Part shown: positions 17,454 to 58,543 of the stretch, in pieces
Layout of the letters: every line of letters starts with the position of its first letter
Position numbering within the stretch: position 1 is the stretch's first letter
Assembly: GCF_044704955.1 (NCBI RefSeq)
Contig: NC_091979.1
Location: 318,432,001 to 318,496,000, forward strand
Direction: 5' to 3'
DNA length: 64,000 nt
Source: Pristiophorus japonicus
Lineage: Eukaryota
Position numbers and translations under genes: made by a program
Notes under the pieces: model-generated
What the model was told of the DNA's origin: nothing
The model's input: only the letters and a program-made list of their open reading frames with translations
Databases searched by the model: none

Positions 17454-18045
17454 CTTGTGACATGGGTCGCTGTCCTGGGCACCGTGTCACTCACTGACAC
17501 TACTTGTGACATGGGTCACTGTCCTGGGCACCGTGTCACTCACTGACACTACTTGTGACATGGGTCACTGTCCTGGGCACCGTGTCACTCACTGACACTA
17601 CTTGTGACATGGGTCGCTGTCCTGGGCACCGTGTCACTCACTGACACTACTTGTGACATGGGTCACTGTCCTGGGCACCGTGTCACTCACTGACACTACT
17701 TGTGACATGGGTCGCTGTCCTGGGCACCGTGTCACTCACTGACACTACTTGTGACATGGGTCGCTGTCCTGGGCACCGTGTCACTCACTGACACTACTTG
17801 TGACATGGGTCGCTGTCCTGGGCACCGTGTCACTCACTGACACTACTTGTGACATGGGTCGCTGTCCTGGGCACCGTGTCACTCACTGACACTACTTGTG
17901 ACATGGGTCACTGTCCTGGGCACCGTGTCACTCACTGACACTACTTGTGACATGGGTCGCTGTCCTGGGCACCGTGTCACTCACTGACACTACTTGTGAC
18001 ATGGGTCACTGTCCCGGGCACCGTGTCACTCACTGACACTACTTG
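17454..18045 (+). repeat. 49-bp minisatellite, left part (~12 units)
   Basis: Unit ACTTGTGACATGGGTCRCTGTCCTGGGCACCGTGTCACTCACTGACACT; CATGGG at 17461 and 17510. Confidence 0.95.
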
Positions 18046-20456
18046 GGATGGTTTTTTAGACCAATATGTCGAGGAACCAACTAGGGGGGAGGCCATCTTA
18101 GACTGGGTGTTATGTAATGAGTGAGGATTAATTAGCAATCTCGTTGTGCGAGGCCCCTTGGGGAAGAGTGACCATAATATGGTGGAATTCTGCATTAGGA
18201 TGGAGAATGAAACAGTTAATTCAGAGACCATGGTCCAGAACTTAAAGAAGGCTAACTTTGAAGGTATGAGGCGTGAATTGGCTGAGATGGATTGGCGAAT
18301 GATACTTAAGGGGTTGACTGTGGATGGGCAATGGCAGACATTTAGAGACCGCATGGATGAACTACAACAATTGTACATTCCTGTCTGGCATAAAAATAAA
18401 AAAGGGAAGGTGGCTCAACCGTGGCTATCAAGGAAAATCAGGGATAGTATTAAAGCCAAGGAAGTGGCATACAAATTGGCCAGAAATAGCAGCGAATCTG
18501 GGGACTGGGAGAAATTTAGAACTCAGCAGGGGGTTTGATTAGGGCAGGGAAAATGGAGTATGAGAAGAAACTTGCAGGGAACATTAAGACGGATTGCAAA
18601 AGTTTCTATAGATATGTAAAGAGAAAAAAGTTAGTAAAGACAAACGTAGGTCCCCTGCAGTCAGAATCAGGGGAAGTCATAACGGGGAACAAAGAAATGG
18701 CGGACCAATTGAACAAGTACTTTGGTTCGGTATTCACGAAGGAGGACACGAACAACCTTCCGGTTATAAAAGGGGTCGGGGGGTCTAGTAAGGAGGAGGA
18801 ACTGAGGGAAATCCTTATTAGTCGGGAAATTGTGTTGGGGAAATTGATGGGATTGAAGGCCGATAAATCCCCAGGGCCTGATGGACTGCATCCCAGAGTA
18901 CTTAAGGAGGTGGCCTTGGAAATAGTGGATGCATTGACAGTCATTTTCCAACATTCCATTGACTCTGGATCAGTTCCTATCGAGTGGAGGGTAGCCAATG
19001 TAACCCCACTTTTTAAAAAAGGAGGGAGAGAGAAAACAGGGAATTATAGACCGGTCAGCCTGACATCGGTAGTGGGTAAAATGATGGAATCAATTATTAA
19101 GGATGTCATAGCAGTGCATTTGGAAAGAGGTGACATGATAGGTGCAAGTCAGCATGGATTTGTGAAAGGGAAATCATGCTTGACAAATCTTCTGGAATTT
19201 TTTGAGGATGTTTCCAGTAGAGTGGACAAGGGAGAACCAGTTGATGTGGAATATTTGGACTTTCAGAAGGCATTCGACAAGGTCCCACACAAGAGATTGA
19301 TGTGCAAAGTTAGAGCACATGGGATTGGGGGTAGTGTGCTGACATGGATTGAGAACTGGTTGTCAGACAGGAAGCAAAGAGTAGGAGTAAATGGGTACTT
19401 TTCAGAATGGCAGGCAGTGACTAGTGGGGTACCGCAAGGTTTTGTGTTGGGGCCCCAGCTGTTTACACTGTACATTAATAATTTAAATGAGGGGATTAAA
19501 TGTAGTATCTCCAAATTTGCGGATGACACTAAGTTGGGTGGCAGTGTGAGCTGCGAGGAGGATACTGTGAGGCTGCAGAGCGACTTGGATAGGTTAGGTG
19601 AGTGGGCAAATGCATGGCAGATGAAGTATAATGTGGATAAATGTGAGGTTATCCACTTTGGTGGTAAAAACAGAGAGACAGACTATTATCTGAATGGTGA
19701 CAGATTAGGAAAAGGGGAGGTGCAAAGAGACCTGGGTGTCGTGGTACATCAGTCATTGAAGGTTGGCATGCAGGTAAAGCAGGCGGTTAAGAAAGCAAAT
19801 GGCATGTTGACCTTCATAGCAAGGGGATTTGAGTACAGGGGCAGGGAGGTGTTGCTACAGTTGTACAGGGCATTGGTGAGGCCACACCTGGAGTATTGTG
19901 TACAGTTTTGGTCTCCTAACCTGAGGAAGGACATTCTTGCTATTGAGGGAGTGCAGCGAAGGTTCACCAGACTGATTCCCGGGATGGCGGGACTGACCTA
20001 TCAAGAAAGACTGGATCAACTGGGCTTGTATTCACTGGAGTTCAGAAGAATGAGAGGGGACCTCATAGAAACATTTAAAATTCTGACGGGGTTAGACAGG
20101 TTAGATGCAGGAAGAATGTTCCCAATGTTGGGGAAGTCCAGAACCAGAGGTCACTGTCTAAGGATAAGGGGTAAGCCATTTAGGACCGAGATGCGGAGGA
20201 ACTTCTTCACCCAGAGAGTGGTGAACCTGTGGAATTCTCTACCACAGAAAGTTGTTGAGGCCAATTCACTAAATATATTCAAAAAGGAGTTAGATGAGGT
20301 CCTTACTACTAGGGGGATCAAGGGGTATGGCGAGAAAGCAGGAATGGGGTACTGAAGTTGAATGTTCAGCCATGAACTCATTGAATGGCGGTGCAGGCCA
20401 GAAGGGCCGAATGGCCTACTCCTGCACCTATTTTCTATGTTTCTATGTTTCTATGT
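18046..20456 (+). mobile_element. 5'-truncated CR1 (family A) inserted into the 49-bp minisatellite; RT region open at 18535-20355
   Basis: QHGF, DFQKAFD, GVPQG and FADD motifs, and a 3' tail TTTTCTATGTTTCTATGTTTCTATGT. A small deletion causes a frameshift near 18530. Confidence 0.93.
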
Positions 20457-20989
20457 GACATGGGTCGCTGTCCTCGGCACCGTGTCACTCACTGACACTA
20501 CTTGTGACATGGGTCACTGTCCTGGGCACCGTGTCACTCACTGACACTACTTGTGACATGGGTAACTGTCCTGAGCACCGTGTCACTCACTGACACTACT
20601 TGTGACACGGGTCGCTGTCCTGGGCACCGTCTCACTCACTGACACTACTTGTGACATGGGTCACTGTCCTGGGCACCGTGTCACTCACTGACACTACTTG
20701 TGACATGGGTCACTGTCCTGGGCACCGTGTCACTCACTGACACTACTTGTGACATGGGTCACTGTCCTGGGCACCGTGTCACTCACTGACACTACTTGTG
20801 ACATGGGTCGCTGTCCTGGGCACCGTGTCACTCACTGACACTACTTGTGACATGGGTCGCTGTCCTGGGCACCGTGTCACTCACTGACACTACTTGTGAC
20901 ATGGGTCACTGTCCTGGGCACCGTGTCACTCACTGACACTACTTGTGACATGGGTCACTGTCCTGGGCACCGTGACACTCACTGACACT
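20454..20989 (+). repeat. 49-bp minisatellite, right part (~11 units)
   Basis: Same unit resumes in register after the CR1 tail. Confidence 0.95.
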
Positions 20990-21625
20990 ATTTCAGCGAC
21001 TTCCCACCAGAGCTTTCGAAATGTTTGGGGTTGTGGCCTGCTGCCAGCCTCTGTCCGAAGTAATTCTCAACCCCTCTCCAGGGTATCAAGCAGTGCATCG
21101 ATAGCGGTGTCGGAGAAGCAGAGAGCTCGCTGGCGAGCTGCGGCTGCATCTGTAATCTTCACCCTGTGAGTGAGTGCGTAGGAAGCTAGTATACGCACAA
21201 GGCAGTGCCACACCCAATCACCGCCTCAATTGAATGCAGGTGGCGGGAGTGTGTCTGTGGCACATTTACAAATGATAATTGCCGTCTGGGTGTTGCTGCC
21301 TCACTTTCCACCCCATTTACCGCCGTTTGCCACCTCCAGGGGAGCGTACAACACCTGCTTTAACCCTGCAATCCCCTTTTCAGGCAGCAAAACTGAATTT
21401 CACGGTTGGTAACGGCAACTGCCGCCTGGTGGTAAAATCTCCATTCAAACGGTGATACCGCCTCAAAAACGGCGCGACCGAATTTCGACCCCTCAAACTT
21501 TTCTAATCCTACCGCCCATTCTAGGCTATGATGAATTTCTAACCGAGAGAGGTTAACAAAGGTCATAGGGCTCTAGTGATTAAGGTCACATCAGGGAAAA
21601 ATAGTAAAAAGTTAAAATTAAAGGC

Positions 21626-31669: not shown

Positions 31670-34050
31670 CAGGCTGGGAGCCAATGTATATCAGTGAGCA
31701 AAGGGGTGATGGGTGAATGGGACGGTGTGAGTTAGGATACGGGCAGCAGAATTTTGTAAGAATTCAAGTTCATGGAGAATGGCAGATGGGAGGCCGGCCG
31801 GGAGAGCATTGGAATAGTCAAGGCCAGAGGTAACAAAGGCATGGATGAGGGTTCCAGCAGCAGCTGAGCTGAGGCAGGAGTGCAGTTGTGTGACGTTACT
31901 GAGGTGGAAGTTAGCAGACTTGCTGATGGAGCTGACATGTGGTCGGAAGCTCATCTCGGTGTCAAATGTGACACCAAGGTTGCGAGTGGACTGGTTCAGC
32001 CTCAGACAGTTGCCAGGGAGAGGGATGGAGTCAGTGGCTTGGGAACAGAGTTTGTGGTGAAGATTCCCAATATTTAGTTGGAAGAAATTTCTGCTCATCC
32101 AGTACTGAGTTTTGGATAACCAGTGTGACCAATTAGAAACTGTGAATTGGTCGGGAGAGGTGGTAGTGAGGTAGAGCTGGGTGTTGTCAGCACAGATATG
32201 GAACCTGATGCTGTGTTGTGGGATGATTTCACCGAGGGGCAGCATGATGTAGAGTAAAGGAGGGGGCCAGGGCTAGATCCTTGGGGAGTCCAGAGGTAAT
32301 GCTGTGGTAGTGGGAAGAGAATCCATTGCAGATGATTGTCTGACTATGATTGGATAGAGAAGAATGGAACCAGGAGAGTGCAGACCCACCCAGCTGGAGG
32401 AGGGAGGAGAGGTGTTGCAAGTGATGTTGTGGTCAACCGTGTCAAAGGCTGTAGACAGGTTGAGAACAATGAAGCGGGTTAGTTTAACACAGTCACAGAC
32501 ACATAGGATGTCATTTGTGACTTTGATAAGGTTCGAATCAGTACTGGAGGAAAACTGATTGTAGGGTTTCAAACATGGATCTGCGGGAATGATCAGCATT
32601 GATTTGGGAGGCGATGGCACATTCAAGGACATTGGAGAGGAAAGGATTTTGGAGATGGGTCAGTGGGTTGCAGGGACAGAGGTGTTAGGAATAATTTTTT
32701 TTGAGGAGAAGGATGATGAAAGCAGATGTGAAGGGCTGGGGGACAGTACTTGAGGAGATTTAACAATATCTGCTGTTATGGGGGCCAGGAAGGGAAGTTG
32801 GGCGGTTATCAATTTGGTAACAATGGGGTTCGAGTGAGCAGGAGGTGGGTCGAATAGACAAGGGGAGCTTGGAGTGGGCATGAGGTGAGATTGGGGAGAA
32901 ATGGAGAAATATGCAAGTTCAGGGCTAGAGCAGAGGGAAACCATAGGTGAAGTTTGACCTGGTGGGCTCGGTGAAAAGACGGAAGCAGGTGATGCGGCTG
33001 AACGGATGGTCTCAATGTTTGTGACCAAAAAATCTATGACCTCCTCACACTTGTTTTTGGAGATGAGGGTGGAAGAGGCAGGAAGAGGGATTTGGGAAGA
33101 CTGTGTGTCAATAGAATAGAAGCCAGGGGCTTTCAATGCCTTCCAGAAAGATCGTGGAAAGGTGAGCATTTTTGGCAGAGGAGCGCAGGGCCCGATAATA
33201 CTTTATATGCTGCAGTCAGAGCTGGCAATGAATAGCGAAACCATTTGTTTACCATAAAAATTCATGTCTGCATCCCTTGGGCTTGAGGGAGCAGTGATGA
33301 GGGCCGTACCAGGGAGAAGAACCAGAGTGAAAGAGATTAATGGTTTAAATGGGGACAAGAGCATCAGAGGTGGAGGTGAGGGAGTGATTGAGCAGATCAG
33401 TAAATGAAGAAATGTTGTGATCAATGGAGGGACAAATGCGAGGCAGTTGAGAATTTGAAAGTGCAGTGTTAAGTGACTTGGGGAGAGTTTTTTTTACAGT
33501 GGCAGACACAGAACGAAGTGAAGTTGTGAGGGGAAAGGGGGATGTGTGTTGTGAGCAATACTAGGAAGTGATCAGAGATGGCCTTATCTGTGATTGACAC
33601 GGGGGGAACAGCGAGGCCAAGTGAGGAGGCAAGGTCGAGGGGATGGCCATGAATATGGGTAGGGGAGTTTATATGAAGGGAAAGATTAAGTGAGGGTATG
33701 AGGGTAATGAACTCAGAGGTGAGAGAGAATGTTGATTTAAGATGGAGGTTGAAATCACCGAAGATGAGAAGTCAGTTGGTGCAGAGACTAAGGGAGGAAA
33801 GCAGTGAAGATATCTCGGTGGAAATTTGGCTCTGTATTTGGCTGGGCATTAGAGAATGAGGATTTTAAATTTGAGAGAGGTAGAACAAAGTGGGATGGTC
33901 AAAGGGAGAGAAGATGCCAGAGAAGTACAGAGAACTACCTCGGTGTGATTTGGTGATAAATATCACACCGCCACAGCGGTCGTTTGGGTGAGGCCAGTGG
34001 TGAAAGGTATAGCCTGGTGGGAAAGATTCATTTGGGGGAAGGCACCTTCA
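31670..34050 (-). mobile_element. Old L2-clade LINE ORF2 remnant (copy 1)
   Basis: LSTAFDTVDH, CADNTQLYL, RNLGVTFD, LIHAFVTSGLDYSNA and QNSAARIL are L2-type RT motifs. Confidence 0.8.
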
Positions 34051-34829: not shown

Positions 34830-37210
34830 AGGCTGGGAGCCAATGTATATCAGTGAGCAAAGGGGTGATGGGTGAATGGGACGGTGTGAGTTAGGATACG
34901 GGCAGCAGAATTTTGTAAGAATTCAAGTTCATGGAGAATGGCAGATGGGAGGCCGGCCGGGAGAGCATTGGAATAGTCAAGGCCAGAGGTAACAAAGGCA
35001 TGGATGAGGGTTCCAGCAGCAGCTGAGCTGAGGCAGGAGTACAGTTGTGTGATGTTACTGAGGTGGAAGTTAGCAGACTTGCTGATGGAGCTGACATGTG
35101 GTCGGAAGCTCATCTCGGTGTCAAATGTGACACCAAGGTTGCGAGTGGACTGGTTCAGCCTCAGACAGTTGCCAGGGAGAGGGATGGAGTCAGTGGCTTG
35201 GGAACGGAGTTTGTGGTGAAGATTCCCAATATTTAGTTGGAAGAAATTTCTGCTCATCCAGTACTGAGTTTTGGATAACCAGTGTGACCAATTAGAAACT
35301 GTGAATGGGTCGGGAGAGGTGGTAGTGAGGTAGAGCTGGGTGTTGTCAGCACAGATATGGAACCTGATGCTGTGTTGTGGGATGATTTCACCGATGGGCA
35401 GCATGATGTAGAGTAAAGGAGGGGGCCAGGGCTAGATCCTTGGGGAGTCCAGAGGTAATGCTGTGGTAGTGGGAAGAGAATCCATTGCAGATGATTGTCT
35501 GACTATGATTGGATAGAGAAGAATGGAACCAGGAGAGTGCAGACCCACCCAGCTGGAGGAGGGAGGAGAGGTGTTGCAAGTGATGTTGTGGTCAACCGTG
35601 TCAAAGGCTGTAGACAGGTTGAGAACAATGAAGAGGGTTAGGTTAACACAGTCACAGACACATAGAATGTCATTTGTGACTTTGATAAGGTTCGAATCAG
35701 TACTGGAGGAAAACTGATTGTAGGGTTTCAAACATGGATCTGCGGGAATGATCAGCATGGATTTGGGAGGCGATGGCACATTCAAGGACATTGGAGAGGA
35801 AAGGATTTTGGAGATGGGTCAGTGGGTTGCAGGGACAGAGGTGTTAGGAATGATTTTTTTTGAGGAGAAGGATGATGAAAGCAGATGTGAAGGGCTGGGG
35901 GACAGTACTTGAGGAGATTTAACAATATCTGCTGTTATGGGGGCCAGGAAGGGAAGTTGGGCGGTTATCAATTTGGTAACAATAGGGTTCGAGTGAGCAG
36001 GAGGTGGGTCGAATAGACAAGGGGAGCTTGGAGTGGGCATGAGGTGAGATTGGGGAGAAATGGAGAAATATGCAAGTTCAGGGCTAGAGCAGAGGGAAAC
36101 CATAGGTGAAGTTTGACCTGGTGGGCTCGGTGAAAAGACGGAAGCAGGTGATGCGGCTGAACGGATGGTCTCAATGTTTGTGACCAAAAAATCTATGACC
36201 TCCTCACACTTGTTTTTGGAGATGAGGGTGGAAGAGGCAGGAAGAGGGATTTGGGAAGACTGTGTGTCAATAGAATAGAAGCCAGGGGCTTTCAATGCCT
36301 TCCAGAAAGATCGTGGAAAGGTGAGCATTTTTGGCAGAGGAGCGCAGGGCCCGATAATACTTTATATGCTGCAGTCAGAGCTGGCAATGAATAGCGAAAC
36401 CATTTGTTTACCATAAAAATTCATGTCTGCATCCCTTGGGCTTGAGGGAGCAGTGATGAGGGCCGTACCAGGGAGAAGAACCAGAGTGAAAGAGATTAAT
36501 GGTTTAAATGGGGACAAGAGCATCAGAGGTGGAGGTGAGGGAGTGATTGAGCAGATCAGTAAATGAAGAAATGTTGTGATCAATGGAGGGACAAATGCGA
36601 GGCAGTTGAGAATTTGAAAGTGCAGTGTTAAGTGACTTGGGGAGAGTTTTTTTTACAGTGGCAGACACAGAACGAAGTGAAGTTGTGAGGGGAAAGGGGG
36701 ATGTGTGTTGTGAGCAATACTAGGAAGTGATCAGAGATGGCCTTATCTGTGATTGACACGGGGGGAACAGCGAGGCCAAGTGAGGAGGCAAGGTCGAGGG
36801 GATGGCCATGAATATGGGTAGGGGAGTTTATATGAAGGGAAAGATTAAGTGAGGATATGAGGGTAATGAACTCAGAGGTGAGAGAGAATGTTGATTTAAG
36901 ATGGAGGTTGAAATCACCGAAGATGAGAAATCAGTTGGTGCAGAGACTAATGGAGGAAAGCAGTGAAGATATCTCGGTGGAAATTTGGCTCTGTATTTGG
37001 CTGGGCATTAGAGAATGAGGATTTTAAATTTGAGAGAGGTAGAACAAAGTGGGATGGTCAAAGGGAGAGAAGATGCCAGAGAAGTACAGAGAACTACCTC
37101 GGTGTGATTTGGTGATAAATATCACACCGCCACAGCGGCCGTTTGGGTGAGGCCAGTGGTGAAAGGTATAGCCTGGTGGGAAAGATTCACTTGGGGGAAG
37201 GCACCTTCAA
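34830..37210 (-). mobile_element. Old L2-clade LINE ORF2 remnant (copy 2, duplicated)
   Basis: Same motifs at +3159. Confidence 0.8.
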
Positions 37211-45788: not shown

Positions 45789-47079
45789 GCAATTGTGCAA
45801 AAATAAATGATGGCTTCTGCTCAAATGCCTTTTCAAAATAGTACTTGCATTGATTGATCAACTCAGCTTTGAAAAGCAGGATTGCGAGGGGCTTTGCTGC
45901 CTGGATTTTTGTTCAGTTCAAATAGTTTTTTTCTGTAACACTGACCTATTTGGTGGTGTATGAAGGTAGAGTTTGGGGTAATTTCTAATGCTTTCTTCAA
46001 CAGCTCCACAGCTTTTTCCACATCTCCTCTTCTGTAAAATTTTGCTGCATAACGAGTTACATATGGAAGATCAGGGGACTTCTGCAATGCTTGTTCAACT
46101 AATTCGTGTTCTTCCACCTTTTGATTGAACTCTTGTAGTTTTAGAGCCAACATCACCATGGCTACAGAGTCATCTGGATCAAGTCCCCACACGTCGCAAC
46201 TGCTTCACTGATTGGCTGCGGTCACCACTCTCTGGGGTACGAGAAAACGTGTCCACACGAAACAGAACAGTCGCATAGCCAACGTTCCATTCAGTGTCAT
46301 CAGGATCATCCTCCAGAGTCTTCTCAAAACATTCCTTTGCCTCTTCATAGTATTGACTAGGAGAATTCAACAGTGACCAACCCTTCTCCCCGTATACTTC
46401 TGGTCTCAGTGCTGTATACCGAGTAAATTGTTTACAGATCATCTCCAGCTTGTCGAGGTAGGACTGGGCCTCTGTCAGTTGGCCCATGTGATAATATACC
46501 CAGGCATAGTTTCCATAGGTGATGATGCTTCTTCTTTCAAATTCATGTTCATGATTCTCCCTCAGAATCTTTTCAGCTTCCTTTAAGTTTTGAATTGCCC
46601 CTTTGAATTGCCTTGCAGACAGTTTACAAATGCGAGGTGGTTGTCAGACCTGGCCTGATAATTCACACCAGCCTGTATTAAATCTTGTAATCTATACTTC
46701 ATGTCGTCCAAGTCAATGCTGTCTCTCTGTGGGCCCCACGTGAAGTGACATTGAAGCTGGCTGAGTTTTGCTTTCAAGCAATCATTCAGTGTGTTGCTGT
46801 TGGAGAACAAAATAATCAAAGCCCATCTTATGTGTATCTAACTTACATTTTTAGCTCATATATAATCAACATAGCAATGCTGGTAAAGTCAGAATAGCAG
46901 AACAGATGAGCAGCTCAGTGCACATGGGCCCAGAACACTTCCCGACAGCCTCACTGCCTGGCATCCCTCAGTTCGGGGGAAACCCATTGGAATCCTGTAA
47001 TGGTCCCGGAGGCAATAACAAATGAACAATTGGCTCATGAGTGTCAGCAGAAATCCATGATCATCCATTAGTCTGATCA

Positions 47080-47440
47080 TAGGTAGGAACATAGGAACAT
47101 GTTCCACCATTCAATTTATCATGGCTGAACTGTATCACAACTCCATCTACCCACCCTGGTTCTGTAACCCTTAATACCCTTGCCTAACAAAATTCTATCA
47201 TCTCAGTTTTGACATTTTTAATTGGCCTAACCTCGACAGCTTATTAGGGGAGAGAGTTCCAGATTTCCACTACCCTTTGTGTGAAGAAGAGCTGTCTGAC
47301 ATCACCCCTGAATGGCTGAGCTCAAATTTCACTTTCATGCCCCCTTGTTCTGGCCTCCCCCACCAGAGGAAATCGTTTCTCTCGATCGACCCGGTCAAAT
47401 CCTTTAATCATATCAAACATCTCAATTAGATCATCCCTTA
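47080..47440 (-). mobile_element. Old CR1 3' end remnant
   Basis: CATAGGAACATAGGAACAT tail-like sequence and CCCTTAATACCC...TTCCAGATTTCCACTACCCTTTGTGTGAAGAA, resembling the other CR1 3' ends in the window. Confidence 0.65.
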
Positions 47441-47455
47441 ACACTGGGGAAAGCG

Positions 47456-47868
47456 GGCTCGGGGAATGGGAGACTGGGGAATGGGGGCTCGGGGAGAGGG
47501 TGACTGGGAAATGGGGACTCGGGGAGAGGGAAACTGGGGAATGGGGGCTCGGGGAGAGGGAGACTGGGGAATGGGGGCTCGGGGAGAGGGAGACTGGGGA
47601 ATGGGAGCTCGGGGAGAGGGAGACTGGGGAATGGGGGCTCGGGGAAAGGGAGACTGAGGAATGGGGGCTCGGGGAGAGGGAGACTGGGGAATGGGGGCTC
47701 GGGGAGAGGGAGATTGGGGAATGGGGGCTCGGGGAGAGGGAGACTGGGGAATGGGGGCTCGGGGAGAGGGAGACTGGGGAATGGGGGCTCGGGGAGAGGG
47801 AGACTGGGGAATGGGGGCTCGGGGAGAGGGGGAATGGGGGCTCGGGAGAGGGAGACTGGGGAATGGGT
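47456..47868 (+). repeat. 30-bp G-rich minisatellite (GGGGAGAGGGAGACTGGGGAATGGGGGCTC), ~14 copies
   Basis: Direct reading; four G-tracts per unit. Confidence 0.95.
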
Positions 47869-48025
47869 CAGGGGGGATCATGGTGAGGCCAGGCGGGAGG
47901 TAGAAGAGGCCAGGTTGAGTGTAATTTATTCTGTGGTGGCCTGGAGGAGCTGGACTGATCCCTGGGCTCCAGACAAGGTCACTGGGCCTCTCCAGCCCTG
48001 GCCTTCTCTCACACACCACAGCAAC

Positions 48026-48115
48026 TCCCTTCAGCCCCCTCCCAGCAGATCCCTTCAGCCCCCTCCCAGCAGATCCCTTCAGTCCCCTCGCAGCAGATCC
48101 CTTGAACCCCTCAGG
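48026..48115 (+). repeat. 24-bp C-rich tandem repeat, ~4 copies
   Basis: TCCCTTCAGCCCCCTCCCAGCAGA repeated. Confidence 0.8.
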
Positions 48116-48230
48116 AGATCGAGCTGCCGGGGGTGGGCAGAGCTTTCGGGGGGTTGGGAGTCGGGAAGTTGGGTTTGGAGGGTGGTGGGAGAACTCGGGA
48201 CCGGGAGAGGCGGGGATTATCTTTAACCTA

Positions 48231-48426
48231 CCCGGCAACTGATGATGCAGCTCGCAGTATTTGTCTGATTGGATAGTTCAATGTTTGGAAAGTTTATTTC
48301 GGCACCAACAAAAACTCTCCCCGTGTCTTTTCTACCCGGAGCCTATTGACTCACAGCCTGTTTTTATTGTAATTGGAGACAAATATACCCTCGAACCAAT
48401 CAGTTCGGAGGAGTCTGAGTGTAAAA
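48231..48426 (+). promoter_or_regulatory. MHC-type promoter: X box, X2-like site, Y box, AP-1 site, CCAAT box and TATA-like element
   Basis: X CCCGGCAACTGATG 48231-48244; TGATGCA 48243-48249; 20-nt spacer; Y CTGATTGG 48265-48272; TGACTCA 48347-48353; CCAATCAG 48396-48403; TGTAAAA 48420-48426. Confidence 0.75.
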
Positions 48427-48460
48427 CACTCTGCACTGGGCAAAGCGCACGAACAGATAG

Positions 48461-51400
48461 CACAGAGAGACAGTCCCAGAGACACAGTATCAGCACAGGG
48501 CACAGAGAGACAGTCCCAGAGACACAGTATCAGCACAGGGCACAGAGAGACAGTCCCAGAGACACAGTATCAGCACAGGGCACAGAGAGACAGTCCCAGA
48601 GACACAGTATCAGCACAGGGCACAGAGAGACAGTCCCAGAGACACAGTATCAGCACAGGGCACAGAGACAGTCCCGGAGACACAGTATCAGCACAGGGCA
48701 CAGAGAGACAGTCCCAGAGACACAGTATCAGCACAGGGCACCGAGAGACAGTCCCGGAGACACAGTATCAGCACAGGGCACAGAGAGACAGTCCCAGAGA
48801 GAGAGTATCAGCACAGGGCACAGAGACAGTCCCAGAGACACAATATCAGCACAGGGCACAGAGAGACAGTCCCAGAGACACAGTATCAGCACAGGGCACA
48901 GAGAGACAGTCCCAGAGACACAGTATCAGCACAGGGCACAGAGACAGTCCCAGAGACACAGTATCAGCACAGGGCACAGAGAGACAGTCCCAGAGACACA
49001 GTATCAGCACAGGGCACAGAGAGACAGTCCCAAAGACACAGTATCAGCACAGGGCACAGAGAGACAGTCCCGGAGACACAGTATCAGCACAGGGCACAGA
49101 GAGACAGTCCCAGAGACACAGTATCAGCACAGGGCACCGAGAGACAGTCCCGGAGACACAGTATCAGCACAGGGCACAGAGAGACAGTCCCAGAGACACA
49201 GTATCAGCACAGGGCACCGAGAGACAGTCCCGGAGACACAGTATCAGCACAGGGCACAGAGAGACAGTCCCAGAGAGAGAGTATCAGCACAGGGCACAGA
49301 GACAGTCCCAGAGACACAATATCAGCACAGGGCACAGAGAGACAGTCCCAGAGACACAGTATCAGCACAGGGCACAGAGAGACAGTCCCAGAGACACAGT
49401 ATCAGCACAGAGCACAGAGAGACAGTCCCAGAGACACAGTATCAGCACAGGGCACAGAGTGACAGTCCCAGAGACACAGTATCAGCACAGGGCACAGAGA
49501 CAGTCCCAGGGACATAGTATCAGCACAGGGCACAGAGAGACAGTCCCAGAGACACAGTATCAGCACAGGGCACAGAGACAGTCCCAGGGACACAGTATCA
49601 GCACAGGCACAGAGAGTCAGTCCCAGAGACACAGTATCAGCATAGGGCACAGAGAAACAGTCCCGGAGACACAGTATCAGCATAGGGCACAGAGAGACAG
49701 TCCCGGAGACACAGTACCAGCACAGGGCACAGAGACAGTCCCAGAGACACAGTATCAGCACAGGGCACAGAGAGACAATCCCAGAGACACAGTATCAGCA
49801 CAGGGCATAGAGACAGTCCCAGAGACACAGTATCAGCACAGGGCACAGAGACAGTCCCAGAGACACAGTATCAGCACAGGGCAAAGAGAGACAGTCCCAG
49901 AGACACAGTATCAGCACAGGGCACCGAGAGACAGTCCCGGAGACACAGTATCAGCACAGGGCACAGAGAGACAGTCCCAGAGACAGAGTATCAGCACAGG
50001 GCACAGAGAGACAGTCCCAGAGACAGAGTATCAGCACAGGGCACAGAGACAGTCCTAGAGACACAATATCAGCACAGGGCACAGAGAGACAGTCTCAGAG
50101 ACACAGTATCAGCACAGGGCACAGAGAGACAGTCTCAGAGACACAGTATCAGCACAGGGCACAGAGAGACAGTCTCAGAGACACAGTATCAGCACAGGGC
50201 ACAGAGAGACAGTCCCAGAGACACAGTATCAGCACAGGGCACAGAGAGACAGTCCCGGAGACACAGTATCAGCACAGGCACAGAGAGTCAGTCCCAGAGA
50301 CACAGTATCAGCACAGGGCACAGAGAGACAATCCCAGAGACACAGTATCAGCACAGGGCACAGAGACAGTCCCAGAGACACAGTATCAGCACAGGGCACA
50401 GAGAGACAGTCCCAGAGACACAGTATCAGCACAGGGCACAGAGAGACAGTCCCAGAGACACTGTATCAGCACAGGGCACAGAGACAGTCCCAGAGACACA
50501 ATATCAGCACAGGGCACAGAGAGACAATCCCAGAGACACAGTATCAGCACAGGGCACAGAGAGACAGTCCCAGAGACACAGTGTCAGCACAGAGCACAGA
50601 GAGACAGTCCCAGAGACACAGTATCAGCACAGGGCACAGAGAGACAGTCCCAGAGACACAGTATCAGCACAGGGCACAGAGACAGTCCCAGGGACATAGT
50701 ATCAGCACAGGGCACAGAGAGACAGTCCCGGAGACACAGTATCAGCACAGGCACAGAGATTCAGTCCCAGAGACACAGTATCAGCATAGGGCACAGAGAG
50801 ACAGTCCCAGAGACACAGTATCAGCACAGGGCACAGAGACAGTCCCAGAGACACAGTATCAGCACAGGGCACAGAGAGACAGTCCCAGAGACACAGTATC
50901 AGCACAGGGCACAGAGAGACAGTCCCAGAGACACAGTATCAGCACAGGGCACAGAGAGACAGTCCCAGAGACACAGTATCAGCACAGGGCACAGAGAGAC
51001 AGTCCCAGAGACACAGTATCAGCACAGGGCACCGAGAGACAGTCCCGGAGACACAGTATCAGCACAGGGCAGAGAGAGACAGTCCCAGAGACACAGTATC
51101 AGCACAGGGCACAGAGAGACAGTCCCAGAGACACAGTATCAGCACAGGGCACCGAGAGACAGTCCCGGAGACACAGTATCAGCACAGGGCACAGAGAGAC
51201 AGTCCCAGAGAGAGAGTATCAGCACAGGGCACAGAGACAGTCCCAGAGACACAATATCAGCACAGGGCACAGAGAGACAGTCCCAGAGACACAGTATCAG
51301 CACAGGGCACAGAGAGACAGTCCCAGAGACACAGTATCAGCACAGGGCACAGAGTGACAGTCCCAGAGACACAGTATCAGCACAGGGCACAGAGACAGTC

Positions 51401-53361
51401 CCAGGGACATAGTATCAGCACAGGGCACAGAGAGACAGTCCCGGAGACACAGTATCAGCACAGGCACAGAGAGTCAGTCCCAGAGACACAGTATCAGCAT
51501 AGGGCACAGAGAGACAGTCCCGGAGACACAGTACCAGCACAGGGCACAGAGACAGTCCCAGAGACACAGTATCGACACAGGGCACAGAGAGACAATCCCA
51601 GAGACACAGTATCAGCACAGGGCATAGAGACAGTCCCAGAGACACAGTATCAGCACAGGGCACAGAGAGACAGTCCCAGAGACAGAGTATCAGCACAGGG
51701 CACAGAGACAGTCCCAGAGACACAGTATCAGCACAGGGCACAGAGAGACAGTCCCAGAGACACAGTATCAGCACAGGGCACAGAGAGACAGTCCCAGAGA
51801 CACAGTATCAGCACAGGGCACAGAGAGACAGTCCCAGAGACACAGTATCAGCACAGGGCACAGAGAGACAGTCCCAGAGACACAGTATTAGCACAGGGCA
51901 CAGAGAGACAGTCCCGGAGACACAGTATCAGCACAGGCACAGAGAGTCAGTCCCAGAGACACAGTATCAGCATAGGGCACAGAGAGACAGTCCCGGAGAC
52001 ACAGTATCAGCATAGGGCACAGAGAGACAGTCCCAGAGACACAGTATCAGCACAGGGCACAGAGAGACAATCCCGGAGACACAGTATCAGCACAGGGCAT
52101 AGAGACAGTCCCAGAGACACAGTATCAGCACAGGGCACAGAGACAGTCCCAGAGACACAGTATCAGCACAGGGCACAGAGAGACAGTCCAAGAGACACAG
52201 TATCAGCACAGGCACAGAGATTCAGTCCCAGAGACACAGTATCAGCACTGGGCACAGAGAGACAGTCCCAGAGACACAGTATCAGCACAGGGCACAGAGA
52301 GACAGTCCCAGAGACACAGTATCAGCACAGGGCACAGAGAGACAGTCCCAGAGACACAGTATCAGCACAGGGCACAGAGAGACAGTCCCAGAGAAACTGT
52401 ATCAGCACAGGGCACAGAGACAGTCCCAGAGACACAATATCAGCACAGGGCACAGAGAGACAATCCCAGAGACACAGTATCAGCACAGGGCACAGAGAGA
52501 CAGTCCCAGAGACACAGTATCAGCACAGAGCACAGAGAGACAGTCCCAGAGACACAGTATCAGCACAGGGCACAGAGAGACAGTCCCAGAGACACAGTAT
52601 CAGCACAGGGCACAGAGACAGTCCCAGAGACACAGTATCAGCACAGGGCACAGAGAGACAGTCCCAGAGACACAGTATCAGCACAGGGCACAGAGACAGT
52701 CCCAGAGACACAGTATCAGCACAGGGCACAGAGACAGTCCCAGAGACACAGTATCAGCACAGAGCACAGAGAGACAGTCCCAGAGACACAGTATCAGCAC
52801 AGAGCACAGAGAGACAGTCCCAGAGACATAGTATCAGCACAGGGCACAGAGAGACAGTCCCGGAGACACAGTATCAGCACAGGCACAGAGATTCAGTCCC
52901 AGAGACACAGTATCAGCATAGGGCACAGAGAGACAGTCCCGGAGACACAGTATCAGCACAGGGCACAGAGAGACAGTCCCGGAGACACAGTACCAGCACA
53001 GGGCACAGAGACAGTCCCAGAGACACAGTATCGACACAGGGCACAGAGAGACAGTCCCAGAGACACAGTATCAGCACAGGGCATAGAGACAGTCCCAGAG
53101 ACACAGTATCAGCACAGGACACAGAGACAGTCCCAGAGACACAGTATCAGCACAGGGCACAGAGAGACAGTCCAAGAGACACAGTATCAGCACAGGGCAC
53201 AGAGAGACAGTCCCAGAGACACAGTATCAGCACTGGGCACAGAGAGACAGTCCCAGAGACACAGTATCAGCACTGGGCACAGAGAGACAGTCCCAGAGAC
53301 ACAGTATCAGCACAGGGCACAGAGAGACAGTCCCAGAGACACAGTATCGGCACTGGGCACA
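48461..53361 (+). repeat. 40-bp minisatellite (CACAGAGAGACAGTCCCAGAGACACAGTATCAGCACAGGG; 38-bp variants), ~120-125 copies
   Basis: Direct reading; only 3 T per 40 nt on the + strand. Confidence 0.97.
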
Positions 53362-53458
53362 GGAATCACACGGTCTGAATTGGGCGCAGCTCACGGACGG
53401 TCTCTCGGAAAAGGATTGCCTGCAAACTGCTCATCCCAGCCTGTCGAGGGAAGTAACA

Positions 53459-54526
53459 ATGTTTGGACTGACCGTGCTGGCCCTTCTGTGTGGAGAGGTG
53501 TGTGCAGGCTCTCACTCCCTGCGGTACATGCACACGGCTATCACTCCGCTCCCGGGCATTGCTGAGTTCACCGATGTGGGTTATGTGGATGACCAGCAGT
53601 TTATTTACTATGACAGTGTGAGCCGGCAGTACACCCCGCGGCAGCGGTGGATCAGGGAGAGCGAGGGCGCCGAGTACTGGGAGCGCTACACACAGATCCT
53701 GCGGGGCAAGGAGCAGGTGATGAAAGGCAACATTCAGACCGTCTTAACCCGCACCAACCAGACCGGCGGGATCCACACGCTGCAGAGGTTGTGCGGCTGT
53801 GAGCTGCGGGATGACGGCACCACCAGCGGCTTCTGGCAGTACGGCTGGGACGGGAAGGACCTGATCAGCTTCGACAAGGATCGCCTGGTGTGGGTCACCC
53901 CGGTACCGTGGGGAGAGATCACCAAGAACAAGTGGGACCAGGACAGGGCCGAAATGCAGCAGGACAAAAGTTACCTGGAGCAGGAGTGCATCGAGTGGCT
54001 GAAGAAATACCTGAAGGCTGGAGAGAGAGAACTGGGAGCTGTTGCTCCTCAAGTGTTTCCTTCTGTGGACAAGGCGTCAAATATTAAAGCCCCCCAACTC
54101 TCCTGTCTCCTCACAGGATTTTACCCTCGCGAAATCCAAGTGACCCTCCTGAGAAATGGCGAGCCAATCAGGGACACGGAATCCACGGGCATCCTGCCCA
54201 ACCACGATGGCACCTACCAGCTCACGACATGGGCTCAGATCGAGCCCGCGGATGGAGCCACCTATTCCTGTCAGTATGAGCAGAGCGGCCAAGCAGGAGG
54301 GAAGACCCGAGACTGGGACGGGACGTTCCGAGTGACTCCAGGATCGCCAGAGGGAACAAATAGGGGTTTGATTGTTGGAATTGTGATTGCTGCCGTCGCC
54401 CTGATTGCTCTTGTGATCGGTGCGGTTGTGTGGAAGAGGAGAGGAGGAGAGGAGACATCTGGTTACAGCCCAGCGAACCCTGCTGAACGAGGAGAATTAT
54501 CCCCAAACTCAGCAGCCCAGTCCTGA
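53459..54526 (+). CDS. MHC class I heavy chain, single-exon, classical (UAA-like) peptide-binding residues
   Basis: Signal peptide; GSHSLRY; alpha1 N-glycosylation NQT; alpha2 CGC...YLEQECIEWL; Ig-C1 alpha3 LSCLLTGFYP...NHDGTYQL...YSC; TM LIVGIVIAAVALIALVIGAVVW; KRR stop-transfer; cytoplasmic GYSPA. Uninterrupted 355 codons, A at -3. Confidence 0.96.
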   Translation: MFGLTVLALLCGEVCAGSHSLRYMHTAITPLPGIAEFTDVGYVDDQQFIYYDSVSRQYTPRQRWIRESEGAEYWERYTQILRGKEQVMKGNIQTVLTRTNQTGGIHTLQRLCGCELRDDGTTSGFWQYGWDGKDLISFDKDRLVWVTPVPWGEITKNKWDQDRAEMQQDKSYLEQECIEWLKKYLKAGERELGAVAPQVFPSVDKASNIKAPQLSCLLTGFYPREIQVTLLRNGEPIRDTESTGILPNHDGTYQLTTWAQIEPADGATYSCQYEQSGQAGGKTRDWDGTFRVTPGSPEGTNRGLIVGIVIAAVALIALVIGAVVWKRRGGEETSGYSPANPAERGELSPNSAAQS

Positions 54527-54769
54527 GGCTGATCCCGAAGTGAAGTTCACTGGGACTAGAATCTGGACTTGCTGTGTCGCAAGGAGGGTTCATTCAGAAG
54601 CAATCCACGATTCTGCATCTTCATTTCGTTTGATTGTCACTGGCTGCTGCCAGTGTTAATAGTAATCGGTAATGTATCTATCATTGAGTGGGTTTGGGGA
54701 TATTTTCTTTTTGGTGATTGGATAGAAATCTCCAGTTGGGTCTTTTGGTGTTTAATGTAAATGAGATGT

Positions 54770-54840
54770 GTCGATTTCGGCACGGGCTGGATGGCCAAAT
54801 GGTCGTCTTCCGTGCTGTAACCATTCTATGATTCTATGTA
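54770..54840 (+). mobile_element. Short CR1/SINE-type 3' tail downstream of the class I ORF
   Basis: GGCCAAATGGTCGTCTTCCGTGCTGTAACCATTCTATGATTCTATG. Confidence 0.6.
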
Positions 54841-54847
54841 TGGTGGC

Positions 54848-55508
54848 CGGGGGAGAGGGAGACTGGGAATGGGGGCTGGGGGAGAGAGGGAGACTGGGAA
54901 TGGGGTCTTGGGGAGACGGAGACTGGGAATGGGGGCTGGGGGAGAGAGGGAGACTGGGAATGGGGTCTTGGGGAGAGAGAGACTGGGGAATGGGGGCTCA
55001 GGGAGAGGGAGACTGGGGAATGGGGGCTTGGGGAGAGAGAGACTGGGTAATGGGGGCTCAGGGAGAGGGAGACTTGGGAATGGGGCCTCGGGGAGAGAGA
55101 GACTGGGGAATGGGGGCTTGGGGAGCGGGAGACTGGGGAATGGGGGCTTGGGGAGACGGAGACTTGGGAATGGGGCCTCGGGGAGAGAGAGACTGGGGAA
55201 TGGGGGCTCGGGGCTCGGGAGACTGGGGAATGGGGGCTTGGGGAGAGGGAGACTGGGGAATGGGGGCTTGGGGAGAGAGGGAGACTGGGGAATGGGGGCT
55301 CTGGGAGAAGGAGACTGGGGAATGGGGGCTTGGGGAGAGAGGGAGACTGGGGAATGGGGGCTCTGGGAGAGGGAGACTGGGGAATGGGGGCTTGGGGAGA
55401 GAGGGAGACTGGGGAATGGGGGCTCTGGGAGAGGGAGACTGGGGAATGGGGGCTCGGGGAGAGAGAGACTGGGGAATGGGTGCTCGGGGAGAGGGAGACT
55501 GGGGAATG
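54848..55508 (+). repeat. 30/31-bp G-rich minisatellite, ~22 copies, same family and orientation as 47456-47868
   Basis: GGGAGAGGGAGACTGGGGAATGGGGGCTY units. Confidence 0.95.
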
Positions 55509-55844
55509 GCGTGGGTGTGGGTTCTAGTATTTCCCCCAGAGCCGGGAGCAGCAGCAACGTGGTGAGTGGGAGTGACACTGAGAGAGGAGCAGCCAGTAAA
55601 GAGGTGAGTGAAACCTGGGGACCTTACTGTGGGTAAATAGTGAAAGATTATTTCCAGTGGTGGGCGAATGGGGAACTAGGGAACGGAAACCAAAGATTCT
55701 AAAACCTAAAGGGAATGTGATAAATATTTGAAAAGGAAGAATGTTATAAGATCTGGGGGTGGGGTGGGCGGGGGGGAATGGGATTACAGAAGAGAGTGCG
55801 AGCTCCGAGGCCGAATGATCTCCTCCTGTGCAGTCATTTCTATA

Positions 55845-57370
55845 AATGCATTCCCCACTCTGCTCAATGTGCTGAAGTTGCAGCCCTGGTGACAGCAATC
55901 CAAATGACTTATGACATACCTGTTAATGCCTGGCCAGATAGTGCCTATGCGATTAACACTTTGTTACCTTTATCGCTGTATGCTCGGAACACGATCAGCC
56001 CCTGTTTATGTTGGTAAGAAGTCTCACTCACCATCTTTGAACTTACACACCCGGAGCAACTCACAAGCAGATCATGCTGCTACAGATGCCACCGTTAACC
56101 TCTGGCAAGCTCCTACCCCTCCCTTAAGGTCTGTCCCGAGTATTCAAGGTGGGGACATCGATCTCCCGGTCTCTAGGCCAGTTATCTTCCCTATGCGGTT
56201 GTTATTGCATGGCATCGGGATGGATGTCCGTTGTCTCAGCCCACTCCATGGGCTGTGGACACACAATTGGCTCCAGATCAGTCTGGGAAATCTGCCCTCC
56301 TGTTAATGTATGGGCCCTGCTTGCGGTGGCTATCATCTGATCTCCCAGTTGTCTGTGTTCCCCCATCCATGGCACCCAAAATGTTTGATCTCCTCCATTG
56401 ACACCCGGTGGGAGGACACTATTCAGCCGATGCAACTGTTCAGAAACTACACAAATTTGCATGGCATCATAATTGTGTTACTGACGTCACTCATAGAGTG
56501 AATGTTGCCTGCCCTGTTTACAGCAAAACCCAAGTGCCACATGAAGCGAGCACTGTTGGGTAGTCCCCCTTCTCCCGAGGGGGCCAAGGTCCCACCTTCA
56601 AATTGACTTTATAGGCCCTTGCCTACAGGGCCTTCTGGGTTGTGGTATTGTCTGGTTGTAGTTGATACGTTTACAAAATGGATGGAGTCTTTTCCATGTA
56701 AAACAAACACAGTATTGACAGCAGCTCGCCTATTATTGGGTGAGGTGAGCTGCAGGCAGGGAGTGCCAATTCAGGCTGATACCGCACAAAGTTTTACCGA
56801 GCTGCAACGGACAATGAGTATGTTGCATAAACTTCATATCTCCCACCGTCCACAATCATCTGGAATGGTGGAAAGAGGAAATCGAATTCTGAAAATTATG
56901 TTAAACAAATTTGGTGCAGATCACCCCACCAAATGGTCTAGCATGCTGTCAATGTGCCAGATAGTTATTAAATCCACCCCGCATAGCACAACGGGTATTT
57001 CACCCTACCAAGCTATGACTGGGCGACTAATGCGAATGCCAGCCCATCTGTTAACCCCTTCAGTTACACCCTTAGTACAGGGAACTGCCAACCAAAAATG
57101 GCTTGAAATGTAGCCAGACAGACAGGGAAGTCAAGAAGCCAGGCATAGAAACACTTCGATAAGCAGTTCCGACCTTTTGAACATCAAGTGGGAGATATCG
57201 TAATGCTACTAAACTATGGGAAGCAACAACATTGCTTCGAACCAAGGTGGAATGGCCCCATTCCCGATTATTGACGGGGTCAGTCCTTCGGTCTATCTGT
57301 TGCAATTCCCTGGGGAAAAAGGGGAGGAACAAGTGGGGTAAATAGTACCATATCAATCAGTTGAAAACCG
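55845..57370 (+). mobile_element. Degenerate retroviral-type pol (RNase H plus integrase)
   Basis: HSAQCAEVAAL..DSAYA (RNase H); LQIDFIGPLP..LVVVDTFTKW..HRPQSSGMVERGNRILK..STPHSTTGISPY (integrase). Possible PPT AAGGAGGGGAA plus LTR start TGTTAG at ~58343-58361. Confidence 0.75.
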
Positions 57371-58543
57371 TGAAAGAATAAATATTGCATGTTTTATCTT
57401 ATAGAACCAGTTAAGAATGATCAGTTATCGAACCCTCCTGCTGGAGGTCATCATATACTTCAGACATTCGAACAGGTCTCAGACATGCTCAGTTACTTGA
57501 CAACAGAAGATGTGAAATGGTTAATGTGGCTCAGGGAAGTGAGACAATTAACACATACTCCATCGAGAATCAATCTAATTAATGACAAAGAGAGAGATTT
57601 GGAGAATCTTTTAAGTCCATGACTTGTTGATTAGATGTTAAACTTCAGCTTTCTGTACAATGTCTGTTTTCATTACCTGCATCAATGTTTGCTGGACATG
57701 TATATACTTAGTTGATGTGCTACTGATTGTCAGACTGAATTGTAACTATAATAATTATGTTTGGTAGGTAACAGAGCGTGGGAAAAGCCAGTATGAATCC
57801 AGTATGAGGGTTTTGATGCTGCCTCCTGTAGTATGTTTTACGGGTCTAAAGAGCCTCTTTCAAAACCGATACTGAAGTGAAACTGACAGTAAATGAGATA
57901 CTTCAGTATAAGCTGCACAATTAAGTGGTTCAATTGGTACGACATTCAGAATGGTGGGATATTGGGCCTAATATATCAGTACATTCTTAGGTTCAAATTA
58001 TTTCACACGCTCTGGTAATTATTTAACTTGTGATGATAGTGTATTTGATATTTGATTAATTGAACACAACAAAAGGGAATATGTGAAGCAACACAGAGGA
58101 AACCCCAGGTGGGGTAAGATCAGGAGAGATACAAGAAACAGAGGATAGCCCAGGCAGGGGAGAATTGGAACACCGGAACAGTGAATTGAATTTGAGAAAG
58201 GGCTCAGAGGTTGCAACTCCCGTTTAAAGGAACGGATTGTAACAAAGGGGAAAATCTTCATTTTTGTATCACCCTTAGCAAAATCTAGAGTTGGCATGGT
58301 TAGTAGAGGTACGGAAATGAGAGATCGAAATAACTTTCTCTCAAGGAGGGGAATATGTTAGAAATCAGGGATACCGAAAAATGTATAAAACTGTTATGAA
58401 AGTATAAAACTGATACGAATGCTGTGTTTAAATCATAGTTTTGAACTAAAGACGGAATATCTATCAGCTACCTGTTACGATTGTATGTTTTTGCGATACA
58501 ACTAATGTGTTATATTCCATCTTAAAGTCTGATTAAACACTAT

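Follow-up and report, generated by a model that had tools for sequence, protein, structure and literature searches.

Retrocopies that inherit their parent's promoter arise from transcripts begun upstream and account for ~3% of the retrocopies expressed in human and mouse (PMC4772013). Intact class I genes outside the major histocompatibility complex (MHC) occur in the tammar wallaby, where they have SXY, CAAT, and TATA elements and where their move was ascribed to retroviral elements and recombination (PMC2719672). Intronless MHC class IIB sequences amplified by genomic PCR from the bitterling Rhodeus sinensis were ascribed to retroposition (PMC6743125). The elasmobranch class Ib genes UBA, UDA, and UEA are multicopy, nearly monomorphic, and related to the classical type, and all of them map to the MHC (PMC10751288, PMC12562908); according to section 9 of PMC10751288, a class I or II gene outside the MHC was not found in sharks and rays, a statement used there for the ancestral MHC. 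The best-known variable-number tandem repeat (VNTR) in a 5′ untranslated region (UTR), that of TYMS, has 2–9 repeats and was proposed to affect output (PMC4504634). The subject here is an MHC class I gene in a 64,000-nt stretch (the window) of the shark Pristiophorus japonicus (assembly GCF_044704955.1, contig NC_091979.1, positions 318,432,001 to 318,496,000). The gene is intronless, belongs to a family of nine on the same contig (C3 below), and is separated from its promoter by a minisatellite of 124 units of 40 bp, which probably grew from a class I 5′ leader as a by-product of repeat instability.

Like the promoter-inheriting retrocopies of PMC4772013, the gene appears to be an intronless copy behind its parent's proximal promoter, with homology that here starts at an acceptor-like AG; it differs from them in being MHC class I, in its nine copies and kilobase-scale leader minisatellite, and in an upstream exon that is not fully matched. 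The wallaby genes are likewise intact class I genes outside the MHC, whereas the shark copies are intronless, lie in an array of IFIT genes, and lack their parents' element resembling the interferon-stimulated response element (ISRE). The R. sinensis sequences share the intronless state and differ in being class II, with no promoter, locus, or leader array in the part of that study describing them. The family resembles UBA, UDA, and UEA in being multicopy, apparently nearly monomorphic, and related to the classical type, whereas it is intronless and sits on a large contig other than that of the MHC. As in TYMS, a tandem repeat of variable number lies in what is probably the 5′ leader; here it has 21–139 units (0.85–5.5 kb) and varies between paralogs. 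The nine genes, mostly intact, contradict the generalization in PMC10751288 for sharks and rays. No earlier description of the family was found in the literature searched, shark lineage papers and supplements aside, and the terms MHC and histocompatibility do not occur in the main text of a vertebrate-wide retrocopy preprint (10.64898/2026.06.26.734816). The copies form a natural series, with nearly the same promoter and open reading frame (ORF) behind leaders of graded length, and thus open two questions to experiment: up to what length a ribosome can scan a leader free of ATG, and whether the length of a 5′ VNTR sets expression. The interest of the locus is carried more by this series and by a retrogene family outside the MHC than by a missing ATG.

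The minisatellite and its descent from a class I leader

The array occupies 48460..53362 of the window (plus strand), with a period of 40, 124.2 copies, and 93% matches by Tandem Repeats Finder (TRF). It starts ~33–38 nt downstream of a TATA-like element (48420–48427) and ends 96 nt before the ATG of the gene, the placement given in a first-pass annotation made from the letters alone. That annotation had also found no plus-strand ATG between 48430 and 53459 and had proposed block-wise expansion. Both claims hold: an exact scan placed ATGs at 48242, 48245, 48281, and next at 53459, with zero in 48284–53458, and variant units recur in order at 49454/49509 and 51349/51404. The array contains 29 CpG, no GTRAG, and no pyrimidine run longer than 4, and for a 291-nt slice of it, 198 of 200 shuffles gave a fold at least as stable.

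The absence of ATG finds no support as a selected trait. The 40-nt unit has 3 T, and ATG arises from 2 of its 120 single substitutions. Across the nine arrays 39 distinct substitutions were counted, an upper count that includes some from out-of-register windows, which leaves a chance of ~0.45 of missing both ATG changes. Because of these figures the ATG-free state needs no explanation; it is ordinary, as chance gives, and selection against upstream ATG was rejected. ATG does occur in the related unit of a sister gene.

An array is present at the same position in all nine C3 copies, with 21, 24, 24, 27, 29, 29, 112, 124, and 139 units, ATG in none, and a common promoter and 5′ UTR (53363..53458, plus strand, conserved among class I genes). 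Six intron-containing class I genes have related units at this position, numbering 0 and 0 (C11), 1 and 1 (C19), ~3, and 6. Two processed pseudogenes derived from the 3-unit gene, with 2.1 and 9.2 units, have starts that lie a few bases apart at most, just downstream of the parent's TATA-like element, so the units were in the mature 5′ leader of that gene. Judged by these comparisons, the 40-bp unit can be shown to descend from the class I 5′ leader, and the first-pass view is supported in that the array lies in leader position and varies in length across the paralogs. The array is likely transcribed as leader, and slippage and unequal exchange offer the best reading of its growth. The three long arrays have private variant units in common in a different order, a pattern consistent with a single large expansion and subsequent duplication.

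At the processed pseudogenes (L067:3551–3908, L070:5029–5108, and L074), unit number (9.2 and 2.1) departs from the ~3 of the parent, and some units contain an ATG with a stop two codons later.

The probable class I retrogene family and its surroundings

The ORF behind the array (53459..54526, plus strand) encodes an MHC class I heavy chain of 355 aa, with leader, α1–α3, membrane segment, and tail in a single frame. Its best solved match was 6LUP (E 5e-94), and a public P. japonicus protein was 100% identical over the query. The ORF is colinear with and 82% identical to a gene at C19:54.67 Mb that contains introns and whose seven coding exons together encode public protein P0006. All seven parental introns are gone, a state that the first-pass annotation had missed: the six coding junctions (53507, 53768, 54041, 54317, 54443, and 54479) are fused, as is the one behind the stop, in the 3′ UTR (54527..54838, plus strand). 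This UTR ends in a tail that we take to be like a short interspersed element (SINE). Parental homology stops at the tail, and dispersed copies L010 and L024 end there too. We presume that the tail is that of the SINE in a shark pair of SINE and long interspersed element (LINE); such a pair is listed in PMC3747384, according to which LINEs recognize 3′ tails. Neither a target-site duplication nor a poly(A) remnant was seen by eye at either junction; both flanks carry a 30-bp G-rich minisatellite of the same unit, detected by TRF at 47443..47867 and 54850..55509 (plus strand).

Upstream of the array, 48222..48459 (plus strand) shares 74–84% identity with the promoters of five class I genes that contain introns. 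It contains an X-box-like element (48227–48244), a Y box (48265–48272), CCAAT (48396–48400), and the TATA-like element, names that we assigned on the assumption of standard consensus motifs. Homology to the parental promoters starts at an acceptor-like AG kept in all five, and the ISRE-like element located just upstream in the parents is missing. Farther upstream, a block at 47902..48074 (plus strand) occurs only in C3-type copies and intron-containing class I genes, at 80–88% identity; in the parents it lies near or upstream of the gene, ~2.7–15 kb upstream in four. The distance of this block in the parents, together with the start of homology at an AG, suggests a retrocopy of a spliced transcript initiated upstream, and the gene is likely a retrogene that kept the parental promoter. 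Matches of 47100–47442 to parental upstream DNA were inverted and ~70% identical; they were attributed to common repeats and given no weight.

With a residue numbering that we presume to apply, Y7, Y59, R84, T143, K146, W147, Y159, and Y171, the conserved peptide-terminus residues of classical class Ia, agree with 6LUP, and position 123 is Leu, where the parent and 6LUP have Phe. The ratio of nonsynonymous to synonymous rates (dN/dS) between the retrogene and the C19 gene was 0.46 overall, 0.27 in α3, and 0.88 in the membrane segment and tail; in simulations with substitutions only, a neutral ORF stayed free of stops in 0.1–6% of cases at 0.18–0.06 changes per site. A tree of 24 rows chosen from the 120 listed put the retrogene in a group (99/100) that also contains the C19:54.67 Mb gene, Squalus Q8HWH7, and Heptranchias sequences, with nurse shark 6LUP and Triakis apart. 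By eye, the membrane and tail portion (54317–54526) resembles the Squalus and Heptranchias proteins more than it does the C19 gene, which hints at an older or different parent. Dispersed class I fragments were used as a control for ORF decay, and 16 of 21 had stops or frame changes; the control is weak, as at least 10 fragments have one common 3′ flank and are not independent. Those fragments (L013–L015, L017–L021, L023, and L026, on several contigs) cover about the same interval from α3 to the 3′ UTR before the common foreign flank, and a class I piece was likely captured and spread by a mobile element.

The nine copies are 98–100% identical, differ by few residues, and lie within 2.7 Mb of C3; a tenth promoter of the same type is on unplaced contig C3585. 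Eight of the nine ORFs are intact, and the ninth has a 20-bp deletion. All sit inside a cluster of IFIT genes, with ~50 open frames of at least 476 aa on C3 among 97 matches (counted by eye; G000:C3:316.3–319.5 Mb), and each is head-to-head with an IFIT exon that has no open frame of that length. In the window this neighbor is a frameshifted IFIT exon 2 (45790..46828, minus strand; TPR matches; IFIT1/5, E 2e-37), 91% identical to intact IFITs, with homology ending at 46828; a matching exon 1 and intron were not found. Insertion into IFIT intron 1 was rejected as a candidate, since neither past 46828 nor within 27 kb downstream of it did the sequence show homology to introns or first exons from five intact IFIT loci. 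Among the same 97 matches, a second group of 11 long open frames lies at C5:24.7–25.1 Mb.

The C3 copies lack linkage to the MHC class Ia region. The MHC markers are on C19, which has ~20 matches to class I α1, a match to class II α, and an exon of a proteasome subunit and is taken from this content as the MHC contig. Putative class I genes with a promoter and an intron after the leader exon, and with zero leader units, also lie off C19, on a third contig (C11:148.36–148.57 Mb; L053, L054, and L147). A class II α domain match at G000:C6:35351065–35351286, likewise outside C19, is a candidate retrocopy or W-type sequence.

Transcripts and the meaning of array length

Contigs from three runs (X1, X2, and X3) were compared with the family; among the runs listed as containing the gene, none is recorded as RNA, a result that counts neither way. 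A 663-nt X3 contig crosses exon junctions and has 50 differences from the retrogene, as does the spliced C19 parent, whose letter it carries at 28 of 29 listed sites; this contig indicates that X1 and X3 behave as RNA. Retrogene contigs at 98–99.7% identity occurred in all three runs, seven among the contigs listed (24 of 628 pieces). Among five from X1 and X3, one matches short-array alleles directly at three sites, three fit such copies by mismatch count, and one is uninformative. The direct matches are X1 alleles at 54521, 54773, and 54775, to which a promoter variant at 48402–48405 is added; an X1 promoter contig of the 27–29-unit type reaches upstream of the X box. Tandem units, in which the joint goes back 40, were found in X1 and X3, one of them in a variant context unique to two 24-unit arrays (typed from mismatch count plus a loose end). 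For the 6-unit gene, an X3 contig begins ahead of the TATA-like element and extends into the first unit. The family and its tandem units are present in likely RNA. The window copy's own alleles were in none of the contigs listed, and contigs cannot show absence; the lack of contigs at 53343–53388 in any run and at the promoter in X2 was not counted as evidence.

The following sequence of events would account for the locus. A class I transcript begun upstream would have been spliced onto the acceptor just before the X box; with its SINE-like 3′ UTR tail as the starting point, it would have been reverse transcribed and inserted into the C3 IFIT cluster. The resulting copy has promoter and leader and none of the seven introns. 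This copy was amplified to nine together with its IFIT neighbor. The leader unit, at 0–6 copies in intron-containing genes, now numbers 21–29 in six copies and 112–139 in three with common variant units. Short-array copies may be transcribed through the array, which, ATG-free and weakly structured, would allow scanning. In the weakest step, productive mRNA would be reduced in the 124-unit copy, or its array would be skipped by splicing. Array length in this scheme is most likely not a dial kept by selection but a by-product of unstable repeats.

Several observations weigh against this account. The kind of the three runs is not on record, and no contig from them connects the promoter with the array or the array with the ORF; contigs give neither strand, start, nor level. 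The X1 contig over 48150–48401 lies upstream of the TATA-like element and fits an upstream start or genomic carry-over better than initiation immediately ahead of the array. Unit contigs had ~1–4 times the depth of gene contigs, against the 8–12 predicted for full read-through of short arrays, although depth is a poor measure. The dN/dS in the membrane segment and tail is 0.88, and some of the divergence may be older than the retroposition. In public models of three copies, promoter and array form an intron. The block at 47902–48074 spans the parental donor-like site plus sequence beyond it and looks genomic, and 48100–48221 matches only the ten C3-type copies and no parent; both features also fit a DNA duplicate that later lost its introns.

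The readings of array length overlap. A tentative second one is decay, by which a jump to more than 100 units crippled three copies that are now becoming pseudogenes, with function carried by the short-array copies. The sole frameshifted ORF is that of the 139-unit copy, the typable contigs match short-array copies, and the long arrays have 26–41 CpG vs. 4–6 in the short ones. A single broken ORF in the three long copies is, however, also one in nine overall, an association with a probability of 1/3 by chance; the 124- and 112-unit ORFs are intact; and the contigs show presence, not absence, and may come from animals that lack the long-array copies.

Splicing around the array is possible as well, if rather doubtful. 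Transcripts would start near or before 46.9–47.1 kb, promoter and array would be removed as a 6.5-kb intron, and array length would hardly matter. The first-pass annotation had seen no splice pair that would remove the array, which is correct within the interval it considered; public models, in contrast, join AG sites past the array (53388–53389 and 53438–53439, in the 5′ UTR) to donors at 46883 and 47071. Six distinct public proteins derive from the cluster, two with a 25-aa and one with a 30-aa extension, the joins leading from 46882 or 47070 to these AG sites. The 25-aa-extended proteins, identical to the window copy and to L031, need the join 53389/53390, and the first coding exon and donor of this 380-aa model are likely an ATG, a Leu codon, and GT at 46877..46884 (plus strand), as deduced from the protein sequence. 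The 385-aa model of paralog L034 needs the join 53439/53440, and its upstream exon has a match at 47000..47072 (plus strand; donor 47071). The X1 contig upstream of the TATA-like element would also fit. On the other side, the models may result from ab initio prediction that lengthened an open frame; the three other distinct proteins start at the normal ATG though the donors are present in those copies; and the first acceptor is almost without a pyrimidine tract and donor 47071 is poor. One X3 contig starts at 53389, the join of the 380-aa model; as it comes from one run and contigs cannot show ends, it was not counted.

It is unlikely that the leader array acts as a copy-number rheostat, setting translation or mRNA output per copy while class I dosage varies under selection through unequal exchange within the IFIT cluster. 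Tuning by copy number was one of two possibilities in the first-pass annotation, the other being that the expansion may have uncoupled promoter and gene. The two discrete length classes on near-identical genes, the identity of the units with leader sequence throughout the class I family, and the weak folding of the array would suit such a role. Against it, the absence of ATG is expected by chance; minisatellites are everywhere in class I genes, including most introns, and TRF returned 28 rows in the window. Effects of 5′ VNTRs in reporters can shrink in vivo, as TYMS warns, with an allelic imbalance there of less than 1.5-fold (PMC4504634). The broader proposal, in which a peptide-binding class I gene retroposed out of the MHC with its own promoter into an interferon-induced IFIT cluster and its 21–139-unit leader with optional splicing forms a per-copy dial in antiviral responses, is similarly improbable. 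An assembly artefact, which the tandem cluster of near-identical copies, the further copy on C3585, and a 1170-nt exact repeat within the 139-unit array might bring to mind, is very improbable, as the long arrays lie at loci 0.3–1.2 Mb apart and have private units in common in different order, with a longest exact match between two of 619 nt and a longest exact internal repeat in the window array of 271 nt.

Other features of the window

Directly behind the 3′ minisatellite is a degraded integrase-like region (55520–57400; weak rve match). Reverse transcriptase sequence occurs elsewhere in the window, in an ORF flanked on both sides by one 49-bp minisatellite (17454–18045 and 20454–20990). Two stretches 3159 bp apart (31691–33202 and 34850–36361) agree in their ORF lengths and suggest a local tandem duplication; the two ORFs tested gave no Pfam match. 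At 774–1596, ~10 units of 80 bp, each with a TATA-like TATAAAA, precede CR1-like ORFs with GDSL and endonuclease domains.

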